A stretch of 64,000 nucleotides of DNA from Candidatus Omnitrophota bacterium. Its GTDB lineage: Bacteria; Omnitrophota; Gorgyraeia; Zapsychrales; Zapsychraceae. The position numbers and the translations under genes are program-made. The notes under the pieces are model-generated. The model saw only the letters and a program-made list of their open reading frames with translations, had not been told where the DNA came from and did no database searches. Each line of letters starts with the position of its first letter. Within the stretch, counting starts at the first letter, position 1. Below are positions 6,713-63,336 of this stretch, one piece after another. Where the stretch lies: the NCBI GenBank assembly GCA_050250375.1, contig JBFWOS010000001.1:91346-155345 (forward strand), in the 5' to 3' direction.

Positions 6713-6901
6713 TTACTGATCGGTTTGATCGATGACCGGACAGAGGTTATGAAATTCTTTGTCCAGCCGATGCAGAGGCACCAGGTGTATTTGTTTACAC
6801 CGGTTGCATTTGAATTCAAGGCCGCGGTGGGTCAGCTTAAACAAAAGTTTACCGCAGTCACAACGTTCTTCCTGGTTTTGGTCGGGCTCGATATACGTCA
6901 T
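6713..6901 (-). CDS. Small zinc-ribbon protein of the Mu Com family
   Basis: 62 aa with the pattern CDCGKLLFK...EFKCNRCKQIH. This closely parallels the phage Mu Com zinc ribbon (CxxC-KLLFK...C-RCK). Confidence 0.5.
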   Translation of the reverse strand: MTYIEPDQNQEERCDCGKLLFKLTHRGLEFKCNRCKQIHLVPLHRLDKEFHNLCPVIDQTDQ

Positions 6902-6989
6902 AATTTAGCTTATTTTAATATTCAAAATCGTAACATTTACAAAATATCGTGTCAATATTTATTTAAACTAAGCTTTATACTGACGTATT

Positions 6990-8792
6990 TTAGATGGAGA
7001 ATTCCGGATCCGGCAGGATTTTCTTGAGCAGGTAATCCGTGATCTTGTCCGCGGATTCATCCGTGGCGGACGCCTCATCCAGGACCAGATCCACCTGCCC
7101 GGCGTCAAACGGGTTTTCCCCGACATTGACCACCACCGTCCGGTTCGGCTGGTTTAACGAGCGCAGCATGTCCAGTTCATACCGGTCGACGTCCGAAACC
7201 CGCGCGATAAAGATCAGCCCGGCATCCGTCATCACGTGCGCCATCTCCCCCAGCTGCTGGATGATCTGGACACGGTTTAAGACCTTATCATTTGAATTGA
7301 TCTGGGTGGATAACAATTCATTGGATATTCCCAGAAAATAAGTCAGCTTGCCCAGGTCGAACAGCTTTTTTTCCAGGGCCTTGGCGATTTCCAGTTTTCC
7401 TTTATAGGCCGCGCCCGTGATAATAACAAACGCTGAATTGTGTTTAAACTCGTGCGCCCGCTTGGACGGAGTGATGTCGCTGCGTTCCCAATTGTGTTCC
7501 CGGGCCTTGATGTGCGCTTTTAACGTGCTGGAATCTTCGAAGACGGGAGCAAGGATAATCCCGCCGCCGGAGATTTCATAATTGTCAACGATCACAAAAC
7601 GCCCGGTCTCCGAAATATACGTGACCTCATCAAACGCGACCGGTTTCAAAGTTTCTAAAATGCATTCAGCCACGTCATGCCGGTCGATTTGCGGCTTGTT
7701 GGATATGGACGAAAGTTCCGACGCGTCCAGGACACTGATGATCTCCGACAAGACCACCGGCACCTGCTGTGACGATAATTTCAGTTTATAATTTTTTCCT
7801 TTTACAAAAGGCTGTTTCCCCATCCAGAACAGATTGGCCTTGAATTTTGTACTGACATGCGGTTTTTTTTGTTTGACCAGGCTTAAGATTTCTCCCGGCT
7901 TGATATAAATCTGGGTCTCGAGAGTCAATCCCGTGCTTTGACCGGAAAAGGCCGACTGCAGTTTCGGAAGATTGAATCCCTCGATGCTCTTTACGGTAGA
8001 CATTTTTTTCGACGGCAAGAAAACAACTTCATCCCCGACCGCAATCGTTCCCGCTTCAATCCGGCCGGAAAAAATCCGGCGGTCATCGCCTTCCTCCGTA
8101 AATTTATAAATATCCTGGATCGGAAAACGAACATCCATTTCATCTTTCGGCGGCGCCTTCTTAAAATCATCAAAGGCTTCAAGTGCAGACAATCCCTTGT
8201 ACCAAGGCATTTTGTCCGACAGGGTCACAATATTGTCGCCTTCGCGCGCACTGATCGGGATAAAATGCTGGGGTTTTAAATTGATCTCCGCCAGGAATGC
8301 GGAATACTCCCGGTGGATGGACTCAAATACCTGTTCGCTGTATTTCACCAGATCCATCTTATTGACACAGACCGTTACGTTTTTTATTCCCAGGAATGAC
8401 ATCATGTAACCGTGCCGTTTGGAATTCTCTTTGATCCCTTCATTCGCGTCAATGACGAGCATAGCGGCCTCGGCCCGGGCCGCGCCCGTGACCATATTCT
8501 TTAAGAATTCAATGTGTCCGGGGGCATCGATGATAATATAATCCCGCTTTTCGGATTTAAAAAAACTGCGGGCGGTATCAATGGTGATCCCCTGGGATTG
8601 TTCATCTTTCAGGGCGTCCAGCAAAAACGCGTATTCAAACGGTTTTGAGTTGCGTTTGCACATGGCCTTAACCTGGTCCAGCTTGCCTTCCGGCAATGAC
8701 CCCGTATCCGCTAAAAGACGGCCGATCAATGTGCTCTTGCCGTGGTCGACATGTCCGACAATAACAACGTTCATCTGTTTCTTTTCAATCAT
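6990..8792 (-). CDS. cysN: Sulfate adenylyltransferase large subunit (CysN GTPase) fused to a C-terminal APS-kinase-like domain that appears catalytically degenerate
   Basis: N-terminal [15 protein letters not shown] GTPase, as in EF-Tu. The C-terminal ~170 aa is CysC-like but has GAAYKGKLE in place of the GLSGSGKST P-loop and GISNEL in place of the DGDNVR catalytic motif. Confidence 0.85.
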
Positions 8793-8853
8793 GGATCTCA
8801 GTCCTTTATCAATTCAAAATTATCTAAAATTAATTTTGTCTTCAAACGAAAAC

Positions 8854-9747
8854 TTACATGTACCCGCTTACCCGTAACGTCTCAAGACCGCCGCCGTCTT
8901 CTTTGTCCTGGGCGCGCCCGGAACGTTCCGCAATATTCTTAAATTTTCCCGAACGTAATTCTTCGATGATGTCTTTGACATTCTTCGCGGTGGATTCCAC
9001 CGGTGTCGTGCAGGGAAAACAGCCTAACGAACGGTAACGTTTGCCTTCACCGCGGTCAAAATACAATCCGGTGATGGGGATATTCTCACGGTCGATGTAT
9101 TCCCAGATATTCAGTTCCGTCCAGTCCAGCAGAGGATGAATCCTCAAATGGGTGCCCGGCGCGAAATCGGTTTTAAACTGGTTCCATAATTCCGGAGGCT
9201 GGTCGCCGACATCCCAGTCGTTATTCCGGTCGCGCGGTGAGAAATAACGTTCCTTGGAACGGCTGCCTTCTTCGTCGGCCCTGACCCCCACGATGACTCC
9301 GGTGTACGGTTCAGTATTGTTGTCCACTTCGTATTCACCCTTTTCATGGTTCATCCGGTAACGGGTCCAATCCCCGGCCAGGGTATGTTTGAGCGCCTCG
9401 GTCTTTAACGCCTTGCAGCAGGAAATACGGTCAATGGCTCCGTCGGGAAATGTTTTTTTCGCGGCCAGGGCCTCTTTGTTCTGGCCGTAAACCATATTTA
9501 ATTTCCATTCCCGGGCCAGGCGGTCGCGGTATTCAATCATCTCGGGAATCTTGTAACTGGTATCAATATGCACCAGCGGAAACGGGACATGCCCGAAAAA
9601 CGCCTTTCTCGCGAGCCACAACAACACCGTGCTGTCCTTTCCAATGGACCAGAGCATGGCCAGGTTTTTAAATTCACGATAGGCTTCCCGCAGAATAAAG
9701 ACGCTTTGCGCCTCAATTTCATCCAATTTTGTCATTGTTTTAGACAT
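8854..9747 (-). CDS. cysD: Sulfate adenylyltransferase small subunit
   Basis: 297 aa, PAPS-reductase-fold ATP pyrophosphatase motif [14 protein letters not shown]-terminal LRVSGYM. Confidence 0.9.
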
Positions 9748-41751: not shown

Positions 41752-42282
41752 TTATTTTTGCTGAAATAGACCTTCATAATCGGTCAGGTCCGTCCGGAGA
41801 TGATCGGAATCCGTGGTGAACGCTTCTTCAAAGGCAGGCGAATCCCAGGTCCAGCGGTGTTGGGCGATGATCTTCTCAAGATCCCGGGTATCGTTGACTT
41901 GCGCAACGACGACTTTTTTTTTCGTTTCGGCTCTGAGCAAAACAAGTTTTTCTTCGAGCCTGCGTTGATGCTCCGGCAGACTTGAATACAGTATCCCGTC
42001 CGACTCTATGATCACAATCTGCTCCAGCTTGCGAGGGGTCCTTGAAAACGGCCAGGGTTTATCCGGGCGGCCAAACTGGTACACGCCCTTTTCTTTCTCT
42101 GAATAAGAATACCGCGACCGGGCCTGGTCGGAAAAAAAATACGGGTAATACCCGTGAACAATCTTATGGTCATCGCGGTTTACCGCAGAGGTATACTGGT
42201 CCTGATACGAACCATCGGCACAAACCCGGCCGGCCCACCAAACGTTCGTCAGAAACGCTAAAAGTAAAAAATAATTTTTCAT
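41752..42282 (-). CDS. Hypothetical secreted protein (176 aa)
   Basis: Signal peptide MKNYFLLLAFLTNVWWAGRVCA. Confidence 0.45.
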   Translation of the reverse strand: MKNYFLLLAFLTNVWWAGRVCADGSYQDQYTSAVNRDDHKIVHGYYPYFFSDQARSRYSYSEKEKGVYQFGRPDKPWPFSRTPRKLEQIVIIESDGILYSSLPEHQRRLEEKLVLLRAETKKKVVVAQVNDTRDLEKIIAQHRWTWDSPAFEEAFTTDSDHLRTDLTDYEGLFQQK

Positions 42283-42370: not shown

Positions 42371-42400
42371 GACCGGGACTGACCGGGACTGACCGGGACT
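42371..42400. repeat. Perfect 3x tandem repeat of the 10-mer GACCGGGACT in an intergenic region
   Basis: gaccgggact gaccgggact gaccgggact read directly. Confidence 0.9.
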
Positions 42401-42465
42401 GTCTGGATCTTTACTTGTGGGGGAAAAATTAAAAGGAAGATTATGGAAATGACTGGAGTAAATCT

Positions 42466-52032: not shown

Positions 52033-52944
52033 CTATTGGTCGTACTTGTAGCCGTATTGTTTGACTTCCGTCATCGTGACCGGGATCTTCGCCCCGTTCG
52101 CCAAAGTCATGGGTGTCTCAAACAGCCGGTTCATTTCCTCGGAATAAATCAGCATAGTCTGCGGATCAATCAGGCGCACACCGCTTCCAGACAATTTAAC
52201 GTCTCCCAGGTCGACCGCGTCCAGCGCGCCATCGGCCATTTCTTTAATCCCGCCGTACATCCCGTCCATGAACTTCGTGAGTCCCGCCGGATTCGCGTCA
52301 TATTGGAATTCGATCCGCGCACAGCGGGTCTGGCCGCAAGGGACCATGTCCCTGAGGATAAAAATCGCCGTAAACTCGATCGTATTTCCGTCCGGCAGGG
52401 TAAACTGGCTTTCCGACAGCCACGTTTCTCCGACGGTTATTTCCCGTCCGATAAAATCACCGACCCGTCCGTTATATTCGGCCTTCTCTTTATTCACCAT
52501 GGCTTCAACACTGATGCTCTTAAGGATCTCTGCAGGCGTGTTTGCCGGAAGACCGGCCTTCATCTTCTCGACAAATTCTTCAAACCCGTTTACATACACG
52601 AAATGTCCGTCCGGATCCAGATGGAGATCGTATTTCATATCGAACATCGGCTGTGTAATTGAATCCGGGACCGGCTGGCCGTCACGGGTCATCGTAATGA
52701 GCAGCGGCACGGCTTTGAGGGAATATCCTTGTTCCGTCTTTTTAATCACCACCTTGACCGTTCCTTCGGTCTGGTCCACCTGTTTTTTTAAAGACCCGAA
52801 TTCTTTGGTGCGTTGCGCGCTGTAGGTTTCCCGGTAAGAAATTCCGTCCGGCGGATTAAAGACAAACCGGACGGTCTCCTGCGCTGCGGCCGTACGGGTC
52901 ATGAGTAGAAAAATAATAATAAACAAACCGTATGTTCGTTTCAT
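52033..52944 (-). CDS. Hypothetical secreted protein (303 aa)
   Basis: Signal peptide LFIIIFLLMTRTAAAQ. 4-nt ATGA overlap with the upstream haloacid-dehalogenase-like gene. Confidence 0.5.
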   Translation of the reverse strand: MKRTYGLFIIIFLLMTRTAAAQETVRFVFNPPDGISYRETYSAQRTKEFGSLKKQVDQTEGTVKVVIKKTEQGYSLKAVPLLITMTRDGQPVPDSITQPMFDMKYDLHLDPDGHFVYVNGFEEFVEKMKAGLPANTPAEILKSISVEAMVNKEKAEYNGRVGDFIGREITVGETWLSESQFTLPDGNTIEFTAIFILRDMVPCGQTRCARIEFQYDANPAGLTKFMDGMYGGIKEMADGALDAVDLGDVKLSGSGVRLIDPQTMLIYSEEMNRLFETPMTLANGAKIPVTMTEVKQYGYKYDQ

Positions 52945-53738
52945 AATAATCCTTCCGGTCCTATTGCAGACCCGTTCTTCTTCAAAAATTCAACCAGGTC
53001 AGACAAATTGTTTCCCTGTCCGTCCACCGTAACGTCAAGTCTTTCCGCCGGTAATTGCAGGCGGTTCACCCAGAACGTCGGGTATCCGAACCATTTGGCT
53101 CCGGAGGCATCCCATCCGGCGAAGGCGACAAACAATATTTCTTCGCGCTTCAGACCCAGGGCATCCATTCCCAGCTGATAAGCCTTCGGGTCCGGTTTGT
53201 ATGTCCGCGCTTCATCCGTGCTGATGACCCGGTCAAAATACTGATCCAGTCCGGAATGATCAATCCCGGCGTTAAGCATGTCCCCGGTCATATTGGATAA
53301 AAAAATCATCCGGATACCGCTGGCCTTCAAGGCCTGCAAGGCAGGAAGCACATCCGGCCACGGTTTTAATGTCAGGTAAGCCCCCATCAGCTGACGGCGT
53401 TTATCCTCGGTCAGGTCGAGTTTGAGTTTATCACAGGCATACACCAGCGCGTCTTCCGTCACCGCCCAGAAATCCTTGTACTGTCCGCCGGAAACCCGCA
53501 GCCACGTATACTCAAACTGGCGCGTGCGCCATTCATCGCCCAGGGCTTTGCCTTGTCCGGGAAACAATTCTTCAGCCAGGGCAAAGACCGGCCGCGGGTC
53601 AAACACCGGAAACGCGTCGAACGCAACGGCCTTTATGGAGGATTGATTTTGCGCGTCCGCGGGAAGGACCGAAAGATTTCCGGCCAGAATTAAAAAACCG
53701 GTCATGAATGTTTGAAAAGATAAACGTGTTAAAATCAT
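52941..53738 (-). CDS. HAD-superfamily, haloacid dehalogenase type II-like protein with an N-terminal signal peptide
   Basis: KAVAFDAFPVFD (motif I, nucleophile Asp), RTYKPDPKAYQ, SNMTGD and FVAFAGWD motifs as in L-2-haloacid dehalogenases. Hydrophobic leader with the pattern AxA-Q. Confidence 0.65.
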   Translation of the reverse strand: MILTRLSFQTFMTGFLILAGNLSVLPADAQNQSSIKAVAFDAFPVFDPRPVFALAEELFPGQGKALGDEWRTRQFEYTWLRVSGGQYKDFWAVTEDALVYACDKLKLDLTEDKRRQLMGAYLTLKPWPDVLPALQALKASGIRMIFLSNMTGDMLNAGIDHSGLDQYFDRVISTDEARTYKPDPKAYQLGMDALGLKREEILFVAFAGWDASGAKWFGYPTFWVNRLQLPAERLDVTVDGQGNNLSDLVEFLKKNGSAIGPEGLL

Positions 53739-53747
53739 CCTTGCTCC

Positions 53748-54071
53748 TTATCCGTTAAAATGAATGGCCAGCCAGACCGTTTGTCCATCGGAGTCTGTCC
53801 ATTCAACCCGGTGGTTCATTCCGGAGGGGATCAACAGATAATCCCCTTCTGTCAGCAGGACGGGATTGGGCGCCCCTTCAAACAGCAGGCCTGCCTTCCC
53901 CTTTAATAACAACACCCATTCGTCCCAGTCCGAAACCAGCCAATCCCCGTCAGGAGTCGCCTGCCCCTGCGAGACAATCCGTTCCACTTTCATTCCCGGA
54001 CGGGTCAAAAGATCATCAAAAATTTCGTTGTGTGAAGCATCCGGCAGGTTTTTAAAAATGTTATTCAGCAT
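53748..54071 (-). CDS. Cupin-2 conserved barrel protein
   Basis: 107 aa. G(D)YLLIPSGMNHRV, a cupin motif with a metal-binding His. Confidence 0.6.
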   Translation of the reverse strand: MLNNIFKNLPDASHNEIFDDLLTRPGMKVERIVSQGQATPDGDWLVSDWDEWVLLLKGKAGLLFEGAPNPVLLTEGDYLLIPSGMNHRVEWTDSDGQTVWLAIHFNG

Positions 54072-54076
54072 AATTT

Positions 54077-54107
54077 AAAGTGATCAGGGATCAGGGTTCA
54101 GTGATCG
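54077..54107. repeat. GATC-rich 31-bp element. Left arm of an inverted-repeat pair (30/31 match to the reverse complement of 57751..57781).
   Basis: aaagtgatcagggatcagggttcagtgatcg has 4 GATC sites. Its partner reads cgatcactgatccctgatccctgatcacttt. Confidence 0.85.
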
Positions 54108-54142
54108 TAGGGGAATAACAACCGTGGCCTAACGATAAATAT

Positions 54143-54163
54143 TGATCACTGATCACTGATCCC
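54143..54163. repeat. Related GATC-rich direct repeat (tgatcactgatcactgatccc) overlapping the last 5 codons and stop of the ABC-F gene
   Basis: Read directly. Encodes ...GISDQ-stop on the minus strand. Confidence 0.8.
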
Positions 54164-56050
54164 TTCTTTTAGTCCTTCCAGAAACTCCCAGCGTTCAAAG
54201 GCCGCCAGCAAATCATCTTCAATCTTTTCCAGCTGGACCTGGACTTCCTGGATCTTTTTTTTGTCCTGTTTATAAAACTCCGGGTCTTCCATGATATTGT
54301 AGATTTTATCCTGCTGGTCTTCAAGTTTCGCGATTTTGGCGGTCACACTGTTCAATTCGCGCTGTTGTTCAAACGTAAGTCCGGGTTTGGAAAAAATTTT
54401 TGCAGGCGTTTCCTCCTCATCGCTGTCCATTTGATATTTGGACGGAACGTTATTCTGTTTCTGATTGAGCCAGTCATCGTAACCGCCGGGGTATTCCCCG
54501 ATCTTCCCGTCCCCTTCAAAGACAATGGTTGAGGTCACGACATTATTGAGAAAGGCCCGGTCATGGCTGACCAGTAAAAGAGTCCCGGCATATTCGACCA
54601 GCAATTCTTCAAGCAGTTCGAGTGTTTCGATATCAAGGTCATTGGTGGGCTCATCCATCACCAGAAAATTAAACGGCTGGGTAAACAGCCGCGCGAGGAA
54701 CAAACGGTTCCGTTCCCCGCCGGACAAGACCTTGACCGGGGTGCGCGCGCGTTCGGGTGAAAATAAAAAATCCTGAAGATACCCGACCAGATGCCGCGGT
54801 TTGCCGTTGATCATGACCGTGTCGCCTGAACCGCCGCTGATATTCTCGATGACGGATTTTTCTTCATCCAGCTGCTGACGGAGTTGATCGTAATAAGCGA
54901 TTTCAAGGTTGGTACCGAGTTTGACGGTCCCCTGTTTGGGGGCGAGTTTGCCCAGCAGGATTTTTAGCAGGGTCGTTTTGCCGCTGCCGTTGGGACCGAT
55001 CAGTCCGATCTTGTCCCCGCGCATGATCTGCGTGGTAAATTTCTGAATCAGGCAGACATCCCCGTAACCGTGGCTGATGTTCACCGCCTTGATCACCTGC
55101 CGTCCGGACATTTCCGCTTCCTGCGCGGTCATGCGCACCTTGCCGGTCTGCCGGCGCTGGGCGAGTTTTTCGACGCGCAGACGTTCCAGGGCCTTGACCC
55201 GTCCTTCATTGCGGGTGCGCCGGGCCTTGATCCCTTTGCGGATCCAGATCTCTTCCTGAGCGAGTTTCTTGTCAAAATGTTCGTTGTGCGCCGTCTCGAT
55301 CTCAAGTTCCAATTGTTTGCGTTCCAGAAATGTTTTGTAATCACACATCCAGCTGTACATCCGGCCGCGGTCCAGTTCAATAATACGCGTCGCCAGATGC
55401 GACATAAACATCCGGTCATGGGTCACAAAAAAAAGTGTGCCGCGGTATTGTTTGAGGAATTCCTCAAGCCAGTTGATCGTGTCCATGTCCAGATGGTTCG
55501 TCGGTTCGTCCAAAAGCAAAATGTCGGGATTGAGCACAAACGCCCGGGCCAGCATCACGCGTTTTTTCTGCCCGCCGGACAGATTTTCAAAAGGCTGGTC
55601 GGGATCGAGTTTCATCTGGGCCACCATCTGTTCGACCGTGCGGTCGATTTCCCAGCTGTTGGTGCGGTCCATTTCGGCCTGCAGACGGTCGAGTTCGCGC
55701 ATCAGCGCCGGGGTATGTTCCGTCTGCAGACGATGCATGAGATGATGGTATTCGCTGACCGTTTTGGCCTGTGCGCCGAGGCCTGAAAGGACAATATCAA
55801 AGACATCCCCTTTCAGTTCGCCGGGGATTTCCTGAGGGAGATGCGTGACCAGCACCCCTTTTTGATAAATAATCTTACCGGTATCAACTTCCAGCTGTTT
55901 GTTCATGACCTTCATGAGCGTCGTTTTCCCGGTCCCGTTACGGCCCAGCAGCGCCACCCGTTCACCGGGTTCGAGCTGCAAACTGATGTTATCAAATAAA
56001 AGCGGCCCGCCCAAGGACAGGCTTATATCCTGCAGACTGATCACAGCCAT
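54146..56050 (-). CDS. ABC-F family ATPase (Uup/YheS-like translation/ribosome-associated factor) with two ABC domains
   Basis: Two Walker A motifs (GRNGTGKTT, GPNGSGKTT) and two LSGG signatures with a linker. No TM domain. Confidence 0.9.
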   Translation of the reverse strand: MAVISLQDISLSLGGPLLFDNISLQLEPGERVALLGRNGTGKTTLMKVMNKQLEVDTGKIIYQKGVLVTHLPQEIPGELKGDVFDIVLSGLGAQAKTVSEYHHLMHRLQTEHTPALMRELDRLQAEMDRTNSWEIDRTVEQMVAQMKLDPDQPFENLSGGQKKRVMLARAFVLNPDILLLDEPTNHLDMDTINWLEEFLKQYRGTLFFVTHDRMFMSHLATRIIELDRGRMYSWMCDYKTFLERKQLELEIETAHNEHFDKKLAQEEIWIRKGIKARRTRNEGRVKALERLRVEKLAQRRQTGKVRMTAQEAEMSGRQVIKAVNISHGYGDVCLIQKFTTQIMRGDKIGLIGPNGSGKTTLLKILLGKLAPKQGTVKLGTNLEIAYYDQLRQQLDEEKSVIENISGGSGDTVMINGKPRHLVGYLQDFLFSPERARTPVKVLSGGERNRLFLARLFTQPFNFLVMDEPTNDLDIETLELLEELLVEYAGTLLLVSHDRAFLNNVVTSTIVFEGDGKIGEYPGGYDDWLNQKQNNVPSKYQMDSDEEETPAKIFSKPGLTFEQQRELNSVTAKIAKLEDQQDKIYNIMEDPEFYKQDKKKIQEVQVQLEKIEDDLLAAFERWEFLEGLKEGISDQ

Positions 56051-56130
56051 GAATTTAGTGTTCCTTTATTTTAAGGGTGAATGTTCGGTGTTGAAAACAT
56101 TCGGACATGGATCGTTTAAATTATTCCCTT

Positions 56131-56367
56131 TTATGTCCGGCGTAAGGGCTTTAACAAATAATCCAGACCGTTCAATTTGATTTCGTACAGACTTTTCAGC
56201 ATGTCTCCGAGCTGGCCGGCCGGGAATCCCTTGCGGCCGAACCACAGAATGTATTCTTCCGGCAGGTCAATCAGCCGGTAATCCTTGTATTTTCCAAACG
56301 GCATTTTCATGCGCGTCATCTTCAAAAAAAATTCTTCGTCAGGGATCAGTGGATTATCTTCGGACAT
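56131..56367 (-). CDS. DUF3820-family small protein. Start taken at MSEDNPL (56367) rather than the listed 56523.
   Basis: MPFGKYKDYRLIDLPEEYILWFGRKGFPAGQLGDML matches the DUF3820 core. The longer start would overlap the upstream gene by ~95 nt. Confidence 0.55.
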   Translation of the reverse strand: MSEDNPLIPDEEFFLKMTRMKMPFGKYKDYRLIDLPEEYILWFGRKGFPAGQLGDMLKSLYEIKLNGLDYLLKPLRRT

Positions 56368-56428
56368 AATTTGAATTTTTTGGAGAAACTTCCAAACAGG
56401 ATATTTTATTGTTTGGAGTTTGCGGAAA

Positions 56429-56854
56429 CTATTCCGCCTCTGCCTTGATCCGGATCGTTGCGTCCGCGCCGGGCCCGACCCCGATAAATTTCCCGCTGAG
56501 ATCAAAACCGAGATCAATTTCAACGGACTTGATATTTTTATTCACCTTCAGACTGCTGACGATATCGTTGACAAAATCGTTAATCTCTTCCTGGGAACGC
56601 CGCACGCCCTGCCGCAGTTTGTCGGCGGGGACGACTGTCTTTTTCTCAGGCACGTCACTCTTGATATAGGTCCTCTCCGGGCTGGGACTGCGCCACGGTT
56701 CGCGTTTCTTGAAAGAATCATATCCTTTCGATTGTTCAGGTTCCCCGTCCCCGTATTTAAAAGGACGTTTGGTTCCCGCCGGCCGTTTTTCAAAACGGGT
56801 GAAGGCATGTTTGCCGGGACTTTTAGCCGGGCCGCGTTTGCTCTTGGTCTTCAT
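56429..56854 (-). CDS. Hypothetical basic protein (141 aa)
   Basis: Good SD (AAGGAGAG, ~6 nt spacer) before the ATG. K/R-rich N-terminal half. The co-located plus-strand ORF looks like an antisense shadow. Confidence 0.5.
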   Translation of the reverse strand: MKTKSKRGPAKSPGKHAFTRFEKRPAGTKRPFKYGDGEPEQSKGYDSFKKREPWRSPSPERTYIKSDVPEKKTVVPADKLRQGVRRSQEEINDFVNDIVSSLKVNKNIKSVEIDLGFDLSGKFIGVGPGADATIRIKAEAE

Positions 56855-56957
56855 GATGCTCTCCTTGATGAATTAAACTCATTGATCGGTCGTATGTGCA
56901 CGTCAGCAGACACAGGCCAGTCCCCCATCCCCTGATACGCGTACCCGTATCCCTTAA

Positions 56958-57347
56958 CTATTCTGAAAAATCAAATTCCCTGGTACTGATCGAATATTCC
57001 TTCAACGCCTTCAGCGGAATATAATCGAGCGTTCTCTCATTGGTCGCTTCCAGGATCACCTTGGGCGCCTTGCCCGCGTCATAGGCCTCCAGCCACCGCA
57101 GCGCGCACAGGCACCAGCGGTCGCCTTCAATCAATCCCGGAAAATCAAACTGGGGCATCGGGGTGGACAGATCATTGCCGGCTTTCCTTGAGAATTCCAG
57201 AAAATCATCCGTGGCAACGATACAAACGGTGTGGATACCAAAATCCTCCTGGCCGGTGTTGCAGCATCCGTCGCGGTAAAATCCGGTCATGGGAAACTTC
57301 GAGCAGGATTGTAATTTTGTTCCCAAAACATTTTTCTGGTCTAACAT
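56958..57347 (-). CDS. DUF2237-family protein
   Basis: GFYRDGCCNTGQEDFGIHTVC matches the DUF2237 signature. SD AAGAAGGGA upstream. Confidence 0.65.
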   Translation of the reverse strand: MLDQKNVLGTKLQSCSKFPMTGFYRDGCCNTGQEDFGIHTVCIVATDDFLEFSRKAGNDLSTPMPQFDFPGLIEGDRWCLCALRWLEAYDAGKAPKVILEATNERTLDYIPLKALKEYSISTREFDFSE

Positions 57348-57427
57348 GCTGATCCCTTCTTAAACAACAGGGGACAACCCCCAAAAATAATCAGGTGCCG
57401 CCCCCTGCTTATGGTTCTAATCGAAAA

Positions 57428-57496
57428 CTATTTGCCTTTTTTGGCTGCTTTCTGATTACTTTTTTTACCTTTTGATTTTGGACTTTTGTCACCCAT
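57428..57496 (-). CDS. Candidate 22-codon Lys-rich small ORF (MGDKSPKSKGKKSNQKAAKKGK)
   Basis: AAAGGAGGAA sits exactly 6 nt upstream of the ATG. ORF is too short to score statistically. Confidence 0.3.
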   Translation of the reverse strand: MGDKSPKSKGKKSNQKAAKKGK

Positions 57497-57746
57497 GGCG
57501 TTCCTCCTTTTTATCGCGTCTTTTTCCTTAATTAGAAAAATGTTTCGCGAATAATAAATTATGAATTAATGAATAATTTCCCGGAGTCAATCGCTGTTGT
57601 CAATACGTGCACTATTTTACAATAAATAAACAGAAATGCTATTTAAATTAATGAGTGATCACTGAAAACCCAAGCCATTTAGTTTTCTTTTTAAACGAAA
57701 TCACTTGGCCAAACCAGCGTTTTGGAAAATTAGCATAACAGTCCAA

Positions 57747-58928
57747 TCACCGATCACTGATCCCTGATCCCTGATCACTTTTTAGCGCTTGGTATTGATA
57801 ATAATTCACCTCAATATTTCCATTAAATAATTTGCGCACCTTGTCCGGCCGGCCGCGGGTGAAAAATTCCGGGAAACGTTTGTCGGATGTTAGAAAATAC
57901 AGGGACCAGCCTTTCTGATTTCTAAACTTTTCATCTAAGGCGTGGTACAGCGGGTTGAGATCCCGGAGGGTGGAAAGCGTAACACCGTACGGCGGATTGG
58001 AGATGACCATACCGGTTTCCAAATCCAGCTGTAAATCACAGGCGTCTTTTGCTTCAAAGACAATATCTTTCTCAACGCCCGCGTTTGCGGCATTCTCCCG
58101 GCAGCATTTGACCAAATCCGGTTCAATGTCATACCCCCTGATCCGCAAACCGCCGGACGGAACAATCCCCTGGCGGGCTTCGTCCCTCGCCGTTGTCCAG
58201 GCCTTGGGATCAATCACCGGCCATTGTTCCGAAATAAACGTGCGGTTCATCCCCGGAGCAATATTACGCGCCAGCATCGCCGCTTCAATTAAAATTGTCC
58301 CGGCCCCGCACATCGGATCGATCAGGAATTGATCTTTTTTCCATCCGCTCAAAACAACCAGCGCCGCCGCCAGGGTCTCCCGGATCGGGGCCTCGCCGGT
58401 CTTCTTTCGGTACCCGCGTTTGTGCAGGCCGTCACCGGATGTATCCAGCGTGATTAAGGCCATATCTTTTAAAATCCCGATGTGGATCGTGAACTCCGGG
58501 CCGGTTTCGGGAAACTCGTTGCGGTTAAACTTTTCTTTCAGCCGTTCAATGATGGCTTTTTTACCGACCGACTGATTGGACCGTACGCTCTCGAGTTTCG
58601 ATTTGACGGAACTCCCGGTGACGGTAATTTTCCCTTCCGGGATCAGCCATTGTTCGAACGGGATCGCCTTGATCCCGTCAAACAATTGGTCGAAATCGCG
58701 CGCCTCAAACTGCCCGAGTTTGACCACGACCCGGTCCGCGCAGCGCAGATGGATGTTCGCTTTGGGGATCTCGTTAATCGTCGCGTCAAATTCGATCTTG
58801 CCGTCAGAACCGGCCGTCGTGAAAAAACCAAGGTCGCGGACTTCCTTTTTAACAAGGGCTTCGAGGCCGAAGGTGGATGTGGCTATGAGCGAAATTTTAG
58901 TCATGAATAAATTCCAGTTACCAATCAA
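57747..58928 (-). CDS. THUMP-domain rRNA methyltransferase, RlmL-like (equivalent to the N-terminal half of RlmKL, m2G)
   Basis: THUMP N-terminal region, SAM motif [14 protein letters not shown], catalytic NPPYG. Confidence 0.8.
57751..57781. repeat. Right arm of the 31-bp GATC-rich inverted-repeat pair. Overlaps the last codons and stop of the RlmL-like gene.
   Basis: cgatcactgatccctgatccctgatcacttt. Its reverse complement matches 54077..54107 with one mismatch. Encodes ...SGISDR-stop. Confidence 0.85.
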
Positions 58929-60462
58929 TCGGATAATAGTCTTTCAGGAATTTTCCGCACCAGTGGGTCCCGGTCAGGATCCCGTGAAAAAACGGATCAC
59001 ACACGCGCGCGGCCCCGTCGACGATGTCCAGCGGCGGTTGAAAATCATGCACCTCCTGCCTCCGTTTGGCAAGGATTATGGGATCTTCGTCCGTCACCCA
59101 GCCCGTGTCCACCGCGTTCATGAATATCCCGCTTTTCGACAAATCCGCGGCCGACGTGTGGGTCAGCATATTCAAAGCGGCCTTGGCCATATTGGTATGC
59201 GGATGACGGGCGGCTTTTTTGTAACGGTGGAACTTGCCTTCCATCGCCGAGACATTCACAATGTGTTTCATCCCGGTGTTGTCGCGTTTCATCATCCCGC
59301 TGAGCCGGTTGCACAGCACAAACGGGGCGATCGCGTTGACCAGCTGGATTTCCAGCATCTCCGCCGTCGGAATATCTCCCAGGGTCAATCGCCAGCTGTT
59401 GGTCGTGCGCAGGTCCACCTGCTGCAGGTCCGCGTCAAGTTTGCCTTCCGGAAAAACCTCCCGGGACGCGAGGGTATGATCATACGCGTAAGGGATCTGC
59501 GACAACTGCGCGCTGGCCAGCATCCCGATCCCGGGTCGCTTGGTGTTCCAGTTCACCGGCAGGGCCGCCTGGTCAATCTGGGTCACGGAAGCCCCCTGCA
59601 TCACCTGCCGTTTGCAGTCATCAAAACGGGAAAGCAGAACACGGGCTTCCCCGGGCAATTCCTGAATGGATTTCAATTCCATCGGGATGAGGTGCGCGTA
59701 AAATCCGGGCGGACGGCGCACGGTCTGCGCGGCGTTATTGATCAAAAGATCCAGCCGGTCGAAATTCTGCTCGACGTACCGGCAAAATATTTCTACGCTC
59801 GGCGTGTGCCGCAGATCCAGGCCGTAGATGTGCAGACGGTCTTTCCAATCCGAGTAATCAGGTTCTTTGGCATATCTCAAGGCCGAGTCGACGGGGAAAC
59901 GCGTTGTCGCGATCACCGTGGCCCCGGCCCTCAGCATCATCATCGTCGACTGGTAACCGATCTTGAGCCTTGAACCGGTGATCACCGCGACCTGTCCATT
60001 CAGAGGCGCGGTCTGAAATCTTTTCTGATAGTTGAATTCCGCGCACACCGGGCACATCTGGTCATAAAAATGATGCAGTTCCAGAAAATCAGCCTTGCAG
60101 ACATAACAATTGCGCGGGGAAATCAGACGTCCCGTCTTTTCCCGGATATGCTCAACGGCGACTTTTTCAGGCGCGGTAAATACCTGTGCCTCACGCGCCC
60201 GGCGGATTCCGGTTGAGGCCCGGGCCTTGCGTTCCTGGTTGACGACCTTCTGCCGTTCGGCCCGCCGCAAATCACTGAGCCTTTTCCGGATCTCTTCTTT
60301 ATCCGGACGGGAGAGTTTGCCGGCCGCCGTCAGAAGCGCCAGCCTTTGTTCATTGGACAACCCGGTCAGCCGTTCCGTATCTTCAAGCAGATGTTCCAGC
60401 ACCCGGATACAAAGGTCGACGTCATCCGAAGAATATTTTTGTGATTGTTGTGTTTCGTCCAT
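58918..60462 (-). CDS. SDR-family oxidoreductase with an ~150-aa N-terminal extension containing a CxxC...CxxC zinc-ribbon-like motif
   Basis: [14 protein letters not shown] (TGxxxGxG-like), NNAAQ, catalytic Y...K. The N-terminal region has CYVC...CPVC. 514 aa. Confidence 0.7.
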
Positions 60463-60486
60463 TGTTTACGCTGCTACAAGGTATTT

Positions 60487-61176
60487 CTATTTGTGGTCGG
60501 GGACAACATAAGCCTTCCAGCGACCCTCGGCCCAGTCTTCGGTTTTTTTCATCGCCGCTATCTTAAAGTCAATCACCTGGTTTTTATATTCATCAACGGT
60601 GATGGTCCGGTTCTGGTATTTTTTAAAAAGGTCCTTTTCCTTAATGTAAACCTCTTTCATCAGGATGTAATTCCTCCTGTACCGTTCCCGTGCCCCAGCT
60701 TCCTCGGTCATCATGGCTCCATACCTGGATAACTGATAAACATGATAGATCTCTTGAATCCGGCGCCGGGTGGCCTGGTTAAAATCACCATGAAAAAGCA
60801 ATGTCATCCGGAACCGGTCTTCCATAAAACTTTCTAAATCCGTGTCCGACATCTGATCCAGACGGACCTTTCGGATACACCCGCTGTGTTTGAGCATCCT
60901 GAGATTTTTCTTGCAGTAACCTTTCCAGGGCTCATCAAACGGCTGAATTTGTTCACAGGCGTAAATATACTCCCGCAGAGCCTTATTCCTTTGCGGCCCG
61001 CCCTGGGGATTCCGGTTCAATTCGCGCAGAATCTCATCGAATTTCCGGTGAATAATTGTCCGGCTTTCCAGGATCTTGCCGCCATGATATTCAAACCCCA
61101 TACGACCAGTAAATTTGATGAGATCCGGAGCGTTCAATGCGGCCAAACCACCCGTGAAAAGGACGGTCCCGGTCAA
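60487..61176 (-). CDS. Hypothetical secreted protein, tandem paralog A (229 aa)
   Basis: Signal-like N-terminus. Shares blocks YHG-KILE-RTI, ACEQ-PFD-P-GYC, CIR-VRL-Q, YHV-Q-RY, RYRR and KWK-Y-VP with the next gene. Confidence 0.55.
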   Translation of the reverse strand: MTGTVLFTGGLAALNAPDLIKFTGRMGFEYHGGKILESRTIIHRKFDEILRELNRNPQGGPQRNKALREYIYACEQIQPFDEPWKGYCKKNLRMLKHSGCIRKVRLDQMSDTDLESFMEDRFRMTLLFHGDFNQATRRRIQEIYHVYQLSRYGAMMTEEAGARERYRRNYILMKEVYIKEKDLFKKYQNRTITVDEYKNQVIDFKIAAMKKTEDWAEGRWKAYVVPDHK

Positions 61177-61224
61177 TAAAAGTTTATAAAACTTAATTCT
61201 GGTCAGTTGAATTTTCCTCGCCGA

Positions 61225-61947
61225 TCACTTCTTGGGGACAATATACGATTTCCACTTCCCCTGCGCCCAGTCAGGAGTCTGCTTCATGGCTGAAATCTTC
61301 AGATCAATCACCAATTTCTTGTAAGCATCAATGGTCAGAGACCGCTTGTAATAAGCCTTAAGCCATTCTTTTTCCTTTTGGTACACGTCCTTCATCAGCC
61401 GGTGTGTCCGGCGGTAGTGTTCTCTGGATTCAGGATTGACTTCAGCCCCGCTTTTGTACCGGTAATATTGGTGGACATGGTAAAGGTCTTTAACCCGCAA
61501 GTCCATCGCTTTTTTAAAATCACCGTACACGATAATATTGGTTTGAAATTTTTCCGCCAGGAAATCATACAGTTCCTGATCCGTCAGCTGATTCAGACGG
61601 ACCCGGCGGATACAATCGAAATGCCGGTACACCCTGGAGTTCTGATTGCAATAACCGCGCCGTGGCTGATCAAAAGGAGGAACCTGTTCGCATGCGACAA
61701 CAAATTGGCGCAGCAGTTTTTGCCGCAGGGTCTGTTCCTGGGCCGCCGGATCATTGTTCAGCCGGTACATCAGTTCATCCGCTTTCTGCCGGACAATCGT
61801 CCGCGTTTCCAATATTTTTTGGCCGTGATACTCCGCGCCCTGTTGGCAGACAAACACGGTTAGCTCGGCCGCGTTGAGCGCCGCAACCACCCCGGCCGAT
61901 GTTAAAATACCCGCATAAACCAGATTGAGAAACTTCCGTTGAGACAT
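61225..61947 (-). CDS. Hypothetical secreted protein, tandem paralog B (240 aa)
   Basis: Roughly 40-45% identical to paralog A over the full length. Same conserved Cys positions. Confidence 0.55.
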   Translation of the reverse strand: MSQRKFLNLVYAGILTSAGVVAALNAAELTVFVCQQGAEYHGQKILETRTIVRQKADELMYRLNNDPAAQEQTLRQKLLRQFVVACEQVPPFDQPRRGYCNQNSRVYRHFDCIRRVRLNQLTDQELYDFLAEKFQTNIIVYGDFKKAMDLRVKDLYHVHQYYRYKSGAEVNPESREHYRRTHRLMKDVYQKEKEWLKAYYKRSLTIDAYKKLVIDLKISAMKQTPDWAQGKWKSYIVPKK

Positions 61948-61980
61948 TTATTCACCACCGTGACTGTTCCCTGCAATATC

Positions 61981-62007
61981 GATCCCTGTTCACTGTTCAC
62001 TGTTCAC
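61981..62007. repeat. Variant of the short repeat family (gatccctgttcactgttcactgttcac), overlapping the stop and last codons of the downstream SGNH gene
   Basis: Three TGTTCAC units preceded by GATCCCT, as in the 57751 element. Encodes ...VNSEQ-stop. Confidence 0.75.
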
Positions 62008-63336
62008 TATCTTAACAAACTTTCCCGTTTCTTTATCAAATTTAAATGTCCGCTCCCCCGCGCCCCAATATTCACGTCCGGCCAGAAAACGCATGATCAC
62101 TTCCGCGTAATAGACATTCCCCAGGGCGTTGTAATGGTTGGTCGGGTTTAATAAATTTTCCCGCTTGACGTTCTTTTCAGCAAACTTTGCTTCTAACGCG
62201 CGTTGTGAATCAATGTATTCAACCCGGTCTTTATATTCAAACAGTTTGCGCCGGACGGCTTCGGGCAATTCCGAAAAATTACCCGCACAGAAAAAAATAA
62301 CCTGGCTGTTGTTGGCCCGCGCGACCGACAGGAGGTTGTCCAGCAAAAGGACATTCAGTTGAATATCGTTGTCTTTGTATTCAATTGTTTTTCCCCGGGC
62401 GATATTCGACCAGATCATATATTTGACGACCAAAGCCGTGTTTGAAAATCTGAATAAATCCGAAGACAGGAAACTCTTCTGCGGGTCAAACCCCAGGATT
62501 TTCTCCAGTTGTTCGCGCATGAACGGCCGGTGAAAATAATCAAACGGGGTCACCGCGTGTGTCAATAAATGCCCGTCCTCTTCCCGCAGCTGAACCCGGT
62601 AAAAAGCGGAATGTTTCAGGTTCAGCCGGTTTTCTTTGGACACTTCCGAGACGACTTCGTCCCGAGGTCCCAGAAGAATATAATTGAAGATGACCACATC
62701 CGGGTTGTACCGCAGACCGTCTTTCAAATAACGCAGATAACTCTGGCCCAGCCCGTAACCGGACACGCCGAAATTCAGCACCTCGAGCTGCCCCATGCTT
62801 TTCTCAAGAAAATGCGTCCAGATCGTATGTTCAGGCTGATAATCGCCAAAGACAAACGAATCCCCGAAGGCCGCCACGCGCAGGGTGTCCCGAGGCGGGA
62901 CCAGGCTATAGTTGCGCAGCGCGCGCAATCCCTGGGGCGAACTCTTGTCCGCCAGCCCCTCCTTGACGCCTTCCTTTATATAGAAAATCCGCTGGTCTTT
63001 TTGCAGGTACCGGATATATTCTTTGCCTTTTCCGACCGTATACGACAACTCATTATCCACCGTATAAAAATTATTGGTATGCCCCGGATTGGAGTACATC
63101 GCCTCAACGATCCTGGATTTAATCAAATGATCCAGCGTCTGCTGGTGCCCGATCAGAAAAAAACTTTCCTGCCGGTTGACCAGAAACAGCAAGGCCCCGT
63201 ACGACACCGCCTCGATAAGAAACAGGTTAATGAACAGGATAAAAATTCCGTTGAGGAGTTTGAAGGAACGATTATTTCTTTTGAAAACAAGAAATATCAG
63301 GCATGACCCGAAACTTAGAAATAATATACTCAGCAT
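61990..63336 (-). CDS. Membrane-anchored SGNH/GDSL-like hydrolase-fold protein (448 aa)
   Basis: Two N-terminal TM helices. VAAFGDSFVFG (GDS block I), FGVSGYG (block II) and later conserved blocks. Confidence 0.55.
   Translation of the reverse strand: MLSILFLSFGSCLIFLVFKRNNRSFKLLNGIFILFINLFLIEAVSYGALLFLVNRQESFFLIGHQQTLDHLIKSRIVEAMYSNPGHTNNFYTVDNELSYTVGKGKEYIRYLQKDQRIFYIKEGVKEGLADKSSPQGLRALRNYSLVPPRDTLRVAAFGDSFVFGDYQPEHTIWTHFLEKSMGQLEVLNFGVSGYGLGQSYLRYLKDGLRYNPDVVIFNYILLGPRDEVVSEVSKENRLNLKHSAFYRVQLREEDGHLLTHAVTPFDYFHRPFMREQLEKILGFDPQKSFLSSDLFRFSNTALVVKYMIWSNIARGKTIEYKDNDIQLNVLLLDNLLSVARANNSQVIFFCAGNFSELPEAVRRKLFEYKDRVEYIDSQRALEAKFAEKNVKRENLLNPTNHYNALGNVYYAEVIMRFLAGREYWGAGERTFKFDKETGKFVKIVNSEQ

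Follow-up and report, generated by a model that had tools for sequence, protein, structure and literature searches.

The closest described counterparts of the repeats reported here are the GGGNATC-type heptamers found by Rehm et al. (2015; PMC4692102) in intergenic regions of Xanthomonas (GGGAATC) and Nostoc (GGGGAYT). Each Xanthomonas genome carries 70–75 of them as convergent inverted pairs, and 83% of the repeats, though variable in length, occupy the same gene context in two species; their potential to form G-quadruplexes was stressed (PMC4692102). Here, we describe tandem arrays of a related heptanucleotide, AGTGATC/AGGGATC on the coding strand, that lie at gene ends in a 64,000-nt stretch (hereafter the window) of contig JBFWOS010000001.1 (GCA_050250375.1, positions 91,346–155,345), and most of which pair into local hairpins. 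Protein searches also place the window in Candidatus Omnitrophota. These loci are a further instance of a known repeat kind, whose occurrence in Omnitrophota has, as far as we found, no earlier description in the literature.

The Omnitrophota arrays resemble the GGGNATC type in having a 7-nt unit with a G-run and ATC, in being intergenic, and in forming convergent inverted pairs able to fold into stem-loops. They also keep their position between related species while varying in length and sequence, and neither set is linked to a functional class of genes. By contrast, most units here are AGTGATC, without the G-run, and a G-quadruplex was rejected as an explanation of the arrays, since each holds at most two GGG tracts where four consecutive G3 tracts are needed and AGTGATC units hold none. 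The Omnitrophota arrays further differ in overlapping stop codons and encoding C-terminal protein tails, and in belonging to another phylum.

A second counterpart is the TAACTGA direct repeat of marine Beggiatoaceae, cyanobacteria, and Bacteroidetes, for which slippage was proposed and whose internal stop codons limit overlap with gene ends (MacGregor, 2015; PMC4679880). In that paper, Mrazek (2007) is cited for heptamers being the most abundant long simple-sequence repeats, possibly owing to polymerase slippage. The TAACTGA unit agrees with ours at six of seven positions in one rotation (ACTGATA vs. ACTGATC), contains stop codons, and forms short intergenic arrays of 2–6 copies. However, in Beggiatoaceae the repeats lie directly upstream of start codons on the sense strand, are predicted to lack secondary structure, and hardly ever occur inverted, with one indirect repeat in 170 sets.

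The cyanobacterial short tandemly repeated repetitive (STRR) sequences likewise consist of tandem 7-nt units dispersed in intergenic regions, although they are best known as long direct arrays rather than short hairpin pairs at stop codons. Mazel et al. reportedly described them in 1990 in heterocystous cyanobacteria, with the units CCCCAGT and CAACAGT, which would share a ...CAGT core with the GATCAGT and GAACAGT of the present arrays. Tandem heptanucleotides were first reported from Calothrix, and these are STRR sequences. Rehm et al. (PMC4692102) cite the work of Mazel et al. for three of them in Calothrix PCC 7601.

Finally, the repetitive extragenic palindromes and their mosaic elements (REP/BIME) of Enterobacteria and Pseudomonas are similar in being hairpins scattered through 3' untranslated spacers, frequently with alternating orientation. 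REP/BIME stabilise the upstream mRNA and affect translation when they lie close to stop codons. Unlike the present loci, which are heptamer arrays with locus-specific loops and no RAYT among the open reading frames (ORFs) of the window, REPs are fixed imperfect palindromes of ~35 nt with RAYT transposases.

Heptanucleotide Arrays and Local Hairpins in the Window

A self-match search of the window bore out the 31-bp inverted match on which the original prediction was built: 54077–54107 and the reverse complement of 57751–57781 are identical at 30 of 31 positions (97%). Both arms are period-7 tandem arrays of one heptamer, which reads AGTGATC/AGGGATC on the coding (minus) strand and CTGATCM on the plus strand. 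Their similarity is far above chance but is fully accounted for by the same heptamer being arrayed in opposite orientation in the two arms. Tandem Repeats Finder identified period 7 at 54082–54106, 54143–54161, 57746–57779, and 61986–62008, with 2.7–4.9 copies, and a period-7 self-match scan agreed on these four, with no comparable signal in the first 54 kb. The pattern (CTGWTCM)2, with one mismatch allowed, matches nine times in the window, where 0.19 matches are expected. The nearby GATC-rich direct repeat noted earlier is present at 54141–54164, and the partial copy is present at 57654–57664. The right arm is also a direct match (95%) to 54144–54164. Four GATC sites had been counted in each arm; the right arm has four, but the left arm has three, its fourth unit carrying GTTC.

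Each arm has a partner closer than the other arm. The left arm pairs locally with 54144–54164 (21 nt, 90%, 37-nt loop), and the resulting hairpin, H2, occupies the 75-bp spacer between an ABC-F ATPase gene (54146–56050, minus strand) and a cupin gene directly downstream of it (53748–54071, minus strand). On the coding strand, the 5' arm of H2 (54144–54164) reads AGGGATC AGTGATC AGTGATC and covers the ABC-F stop codon (54146–54148). It is followed by a locus-specific loop (54108–54143), which has a small inner stem in the RNA fold and no other copy in the window, and by the 3' arm (54077–54107), CGATCAC TGAACCC TGATCCC TGATCAC TTT, which ends 5 nt before the cupin ATG (54071). The right arm of the original prediction is the 5' arm of another minus-strand hairpin, H1 (57743–57781; AGTGATC AGGGATC AGGGATC AGTGATC GGTGATT), at the 3' end of a gene for an RlmL-like THUMP/UPF0020 RNA methyltransferase (57747–58904, minus strand, 385 aa). 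It pairs with a short copy ~80 nt downstream, beyond the end of that gene; this 3' arm, AGTGATCACTG (57654–57664, minus strand), is the partial copy mentioned above and pairs with the first 5'-arm unit, giving an outer 8-bp stem in both the minimum-free-energy and the centroid structure. As RNA, H2 folds at -32.6 kcal/mol (z = -4.0 vs. dinucleotide shuffles) and H1 at -37.7 kcal/mol (z = -2.45).

The common layout of the hairpins is 5'-(AGKGATN)n, a unique loop, and (N'ATCMCT)n-3'. The inverted repeat spanning 3.6 kb is only apparent, because the 3' arm of one such hairpin and the 5' arm of the next are reverse complements by construction. A third locus, at 61981–62008 (minus strand), where a GDSL-like gene ends, is a direct array of three AGTGAAC units and one AGGGATC. 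It lacks an inverted partner, its fold is no better than shuffles (z = +0.3), and L001 also carries an array at the orthologous position. Overall, the loci display tandem copies, dispersal over several places, a bias toward intergenic and post-stop positions, and convergent inverted pairs, as expected of a heptanucleotide simple-sequence repeat. We conclude with high confidence that the two arms are independent arrays of one heptanucleotide and belong to a dispersed heptameric simple-sequence repeat family in this metagenome-assembled Candidatus Omnitrophota genome.

In the heptamer-hairpin stems of H2 and of loci in L128, L129, and L005 (see below), each 6-bp helix is separated from the next by one mismatch, which recurs every 7 nt and corresponds to the variable N of AGKGATN. 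A helix interrupted so periodically could be a recognition feature.

Stop Codons and Array-Encoded Protein Tails

At each of the three loci in the window, the array and the stop codon of the preceding minus-strand gene overlap. The ABC-F protein ends in ...EGISDQ*, with its TGA inside the array, and the stop codon of the GDSL-like gene (61990–61992) lies within the first AGTGAAC units. In the RlmL-like gene, 57743–57781 encodes the last 11 codons, stop included (57747–57749), so that five units are read through. Homologs in relatives end in KSDQ*, their second unit being AGTGATC with an in-frame TGA, whereas the second unit in the window is AGGGATC and the C-terminus is seven residues longer; the seven additional codons are thus due to one T-to-G change that removed the in-frame TGA. 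In AGTGATN units, TGA recurs at period 7, and three units close all three reading frames. Since TGA-bearing units stop every frame within three units, an array could invade a gene end at the cost of a few residues.

Further Loci in the Same Genome

Over 12,011 nt, the window shows 100% identity with contig JBFXCX010000004.1 of GCA_050181705.1 (L129) and with two Logan assemblies, and the readable stretch of the source genome, to which locus counts refer, amounts to ~73 kb. About 550–850 nt past the right end of the window, still on this contig, a tRNA-Val(CAC) gene has a heptamer hairpin on either side (L129 8556–8662, z = -3.5; 8755–8860, z = -6.4). The upstream hairpin of the two comes after the stop codon of a gene encoding 51 aa and is itself followed by TTTTT, or by TTTTTT at the orthologous site in L001. 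This T-run is the best local hint of an intrinsic terminator, and the position of tRNA-Val between two hairpins could reflect a terminator or a tRNA-processing context.

The five heptamer loci fall within ~11 kb (54077–62008 plus L129 8556–8860), and the preceding 54 kb has none.

Orthologous Sites in Related Genomes

We compared the window with sequences from relatives (L001, L004/L005, L006/L007, L128/L134, and L132/L133) that share 79–93% RlmL identity or ~90% ABC-F identity with it. The genes between the two arms are those listed in the original prediction, namely ABC-F, PF12843 (there called DUF3820), a 141-aa protein with no annotation, DUF2237, and a Lys-rich ORF of 22 aa. The order RlmL, 22-aa peptide, DUF2237, hypothetical protein, PF12843, and ABC-F is kept in L001, L006, and L132 at 79–93% amino-acid identity. 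The cupin gene comes next after this block in L001 and L132 but not in L006.

Heptamer arrays are present at the RlmL 3' end in every relative examined, and the inverted pair is seen at four of five sites, the window counted. The window has five AGTGATC/AGGGATC units in the 5' arm and AGTGATCACT in the 3' arm. L001 has two AGTGATC units facing CTGATCA CTGAGCA CTTATCC CTGATCA; L005 has four NGTGATA units facing five of TATCACT, with a fold z of -8.3; and L006 has seven AGTGATC/G/A units facing five of the ACTGACC type. In L132, five AGTGATC/AGGGATC units form the 5' arm, and a clear inverted arm was not seen in the stretch read. The hairpin in the ABC-F/cupin spacer is built of GATC units in the window, of AGTGACT/AGGGACC paired with GGTCACY in L128/L134 (z = -4.5), and of GTGAC paired with GTCAC in L132/L133. 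Neither L006 nor L001 has it, and in L001 the ABC-F and cupin genes overlap. Overall, the orthologous hairpins fold with z = -2.3 to -8.3 against dinucleotide shuffles.

The changes between relatives are matched across the stems. From the window to L128, several units of both arms have exchanged the U-A pair inside GAUC/GAUC for C-G (GACU/GGUC), and the hairpin loops are not alike between relatives. Judged from the sequences compared, what is kept is the position, the 7-nt register, and the complementarity, and neither the primary sequence nor GATC.

A recent insertion at the ABC-F/cupin junction, which is filled in the window and empty in L001, was considered and set aside: both L128/L134 and L132/L133 carry a heptamer hairpin there, and loss in L001 is the simpler account.

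Two differences in gene content were also seen. A HAD-family hydrolase gene (52941–53738, minus strand) between the cupin gene and a gene for a 303-aa protein, next to H2, is missing at that position in L001 and L132. In L004 (86% RlmL identity), the short-chain dehydrogenase and RlmL genes are separated by an inserted AAA_14/DUF4143 ATPase gene (8164–9321), which the window, L001, L006, and L132 lack at that position.

Occurrence Across Bacterial Phyla

A scan of GTDB representative genomes for three consecutive AGKGATN units returned at least 120 loci. The counts that follow refer to the matches listed, which come from at least 12 phyla. The groups among them include Acidobacteriota (many Pyrinomonadaceae), Planctomycetota, Cyanobacteria, Chloroflexota, Bacteroidota, Verrucomicrobiota, and Firmicutes, as well as several proteobacterial classes, Armatimonadota, Patescibacteria, Cloacimonadota, and others. 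Nearly all of these matches extend into longer arrays of 20–440 nt and are therefore not due to chance.

With arms counted individually, 41 inverted partners within 200 nt lie downstream of the AGKGATN strand, against three that lie upstream of it, a bias that amounts to the purine-arm-first layout seen in the window. Gene edges were compared using a crude ORF call, with the array edge required to fall within -25 to +10 nt of a gene boundary. Of 65 array starts that follow a sense upstream gene, 34 lie this close to its stop codon, whereas of 64 array ends that face the stop codon of an antisense downstream gene, 8 do so (Fisher p = 1.6e-6). The start codon of an antisense upstream gene faces the array start in 7 of 44 cases, and that of a sense downstream gene faces the array end in 6 of 40. 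Arrays without a partner are found in convergent gene contexts 23 times and in divergent contexts 7 times.

The array flanks are A-rich upstream and T-rich downstream, at about twice background, and among 24 hairpins across taxa the T fraction of the 3' flank is 0.40 against a background of 0.20. No loop is shared among 16 hairpins compared from metagenome-assembled genomes of Acidobacteriota and Planctomycetota (mostly Pyrinomonadaceae).

Proposed Role and Alternative Explanations

Taken as a whole, we think it likely that the heptamer arrays are gene-end hairpins, whose most probable role would be at the 3' end of the upstream message. Within this reading, the arrays would grow and shrink through replication slippage of the 7-nt unit, and the complementarity of the arms would be maintained either through selection on the transcribed stem-loop or through templated (quasipalindrome-type) correction. 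The transcribed hairpin would then be the 3'-end structure of the upstream message, acting as a terminator, as a block to 3' exonucleases that stabilises the mRNA, or as an insulator between transcription units. That the stem-loop has such a 3'-end function is the more tentative part of the proposal, for which we would claim a little less than an even chance.

Several observations weigh against the gene-end hairpin reading. A terminator scan called neither H1 nor H2, whose loops exceed the limit of the scan; the two hairpins are followed only by TTTAAATT and CATTAATTT, without a clear U-tract, and canonical U-tracts are also rare across taxa, with five or more T in the next 8 nt after only 3 of the 24 hairpins. 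Gene ends are numerous in the first 54 kb, yet none of them carries an array, and the arrays are therefore not the general terminator of this genome. As for slippage, three samples of the same strain show zero variation in unit number. The arms could stay complementary through a mutational mechanism alone, and the hairpin-less array at 61981–62008 means that the stem-loop is not the whole story.

Among the alternatives, the one that survives best, which we still consider unlikely, is that the arrays are neutral by-products of slippage, tolerated just after stop codons, with the inverted pairs arising from template switching. It accords with heptamers being the commonest long simple-sequence repeats in bacteria, for which an explanation from the polymerase footprint was proposed (Mrazek, 2007, as cited in PMC4692102 and PMC4679880); stop codons within the units would account for the placement at gene ends, and arrays do occur at some gene ends only. 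However, orthologous positions have been kept over 79–93% protein identity while both arms changed together, and the 41:3 polarity and the enrichment of convergent contexts among the matches listed suggest constraint. The clean loss of one hairpin in L001 shows that loss is possible, yet most sites persist.

The arrays might instead be bound by a sequence-specific protein that recognises the 7-nt register, either in RNA after the stop codon or in DNA as iteron-like sites, with a regulatory network as the function and the hairpin as a secondary matter. The regular register with its free seventh position, the polarity and stop-codon adjacency held strictly across phyla among the matches listed, and the existence of an array without a partner (61981–62008) would all suit such a binder. 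Comparable proteins have been proposed elsewhere, namely binders of the S1, Csp, or CsrA type for TAACTGA repeats (PMC4679880) and an unidentified binder for Nostoc heptamers (bioRxiv 10.1101/2022.06.06.494920). On the other hand, the unit differs between close relatives at the same site (GATC, GATA, GACT, GTGAC), which is hard to square with one specific binder, and the window offers no candidate protein linked to its arrays. We regard a binding-site role as distinctly improbable.

The original prediction had suggested a REP- or MITE-like mobile repeat family. The dispersed family that this implied does exist, with five loci in ~11 kb and the same architecture in many phyla, but it is a heptanucleotide tandem repeat in which we found none of the marks of a transposable unit. 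A REP/BIME- or MITE-like origin, in which each hairpin is non-autonomous and spread by a RAYT or other transposase encoded elsewhere, has in its favour the dispersed, hairpin-forming copies in intergenic spacers and the one site that is filled in the window and empty in L001. The more distant L128 and L132 have that hairpin, however, so that the empty L001 site is more simply read as loss, and no target-site duplication, one of the checks proposed earlier, was seen by eye at the H2 junction against relatives. No two loci share a loop, whether in this genome or among the 16 hairpins of Acidobacteriota and Planctomycetota, so that the whole hairpin is not the copied unit; the arms are tandem arrays rather than a fixed palindrome; and no transposase or Y1/RAYT domain occurs among the ORFs of the window. 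With neither shared internal sequence nor a duplication at the H2 junction, the loci lack what would identify a MITE, and we give a mobile origin of this type very little credence.

A cluster of GATC sites of the Dam/SeqA type, with a methylation-dependent role in regulation or replication, was another earlier suggestion; in its favour, GATC recurs every 7 bp, three or four times to an array. It can hardly be upheld, as orthologous arrays carry GATA, GACT/GACC, or GTGAC in place of GATC, and another array of the same genome uses AGTGAAC. GATC is present at 1.09 times its expected frequency in the window under a Markov model, only 12 of the 444 GATC sites lie in the arrays, and no Dam-type methylase is encoded in the window. 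SeqA is not known outside Gammaproteobacteria. An apparent excess of GATC over base composition (444 sites vs. 244 expected) was also considered and vanishes under the same Markov model.

Lastly, that the 31-nt arms are terminal inverted repeats of a composite or cargo element comprising the 3.6-kb block (ABC-F, PF12843, DUF2237, and the peptide gene) is as good as refuted: its sole support is the long-range 30/31 match, whereas synteny with L001, L006, and L132 extends over the block and its flanks, each arm has a nearer partner in its own local hairpin, no recombinase domain lies inside the block, no direct repeats flank the arms, and the arms lie within or against the stop codons of flanking housekeeping genes. 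Integron attC sites, which are likewise imperfect hairpins located after stop codons, were also rejected, the arms containing no GTTRRRY / RYYYAAC core and the genes being syntenic housekeeping genes.

Other Features of the Window

The gene content of the window is otherwise ordinary housekeeping, with no recombinase among its ORFs, and the covariance models of Rfam 15 gave no match at gathering score anywhere in the window. The 22-aa Lys-rich ORF, MGDKSPKSKGKKSNQKAAKKGK (57428–57496, minus strand), is preceded by a strong Shine-Dalgarno sequence, AAAGGAGGAAC, and is nearly identical in the four relatives read (L001, L005, L006, and L132). Between it and the DUF2237 gene, at 57368–57407 (minus strand), lies a GC-rich stem, CAGGGG...CCCCTG, with a T-rich tail, which is kept in the window, L001, L005, and L006. 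From sequence, the ORF looks like a gene for a conserved small protein, or else the ORF and stem look like a leader peptide and its attenuator or terminator; the region has no Rfam match.

A perfect 10-nt tandem repeat (GACCGGGACT, 3.1 copies, 42371–42401) occupies the spacer between two minus-strand genes, upstream of 41752–42282. In addition, a 26-nt inverted repeat (6893–6988; 81% complementary, 44-nt spacer) ends directly upstream of a CysN-like gene (6990–8792). It lies at the edge of a ~480-nt region between the CysN-like gene and SurE, in which there is also a possible small Cys-rich ORF.

Implications

The comparison removes a false lead, in that neither a mobile 3.6-kb element nor a methylation switch is found here. 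It also bears on annotation, as gene callers stretch the C-termini of proteins into these arrays, as in the RlmL-like protein. The same polarity and stop-codon adjacency of heptameric repeats are extended to Omnitrophota and to at least 12 phyla, and the turnover of units with matched changes in the arms yields a testable hypothesis, namely that the stem-loop is kept and not the sequence.

A bolder proposal, which we hold to be doubtful, is that heptamer hairpins form one coherent pan-bacterial class of gene-end elements with a dedicated function or generating mechanism, rather than independent accidents of slippage. The fixed features of such a class would be the purine-rich arm first, the start at the stop codon, 6-bp helices with a free seventh position, and locus-specific loops. 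Such a class might serve as a specialised signal for termination or ribosome release, or might come from a process that writes repeats from a template. If this proposal holds, the Omnitrophota loci add a phylum with small genomes and orthologous sites that change both arms in concert. The polarity across phyla, the stop-codon rule, and the concerted evolution of the arms could open the long-standing question of the role of heptamers to experiment.

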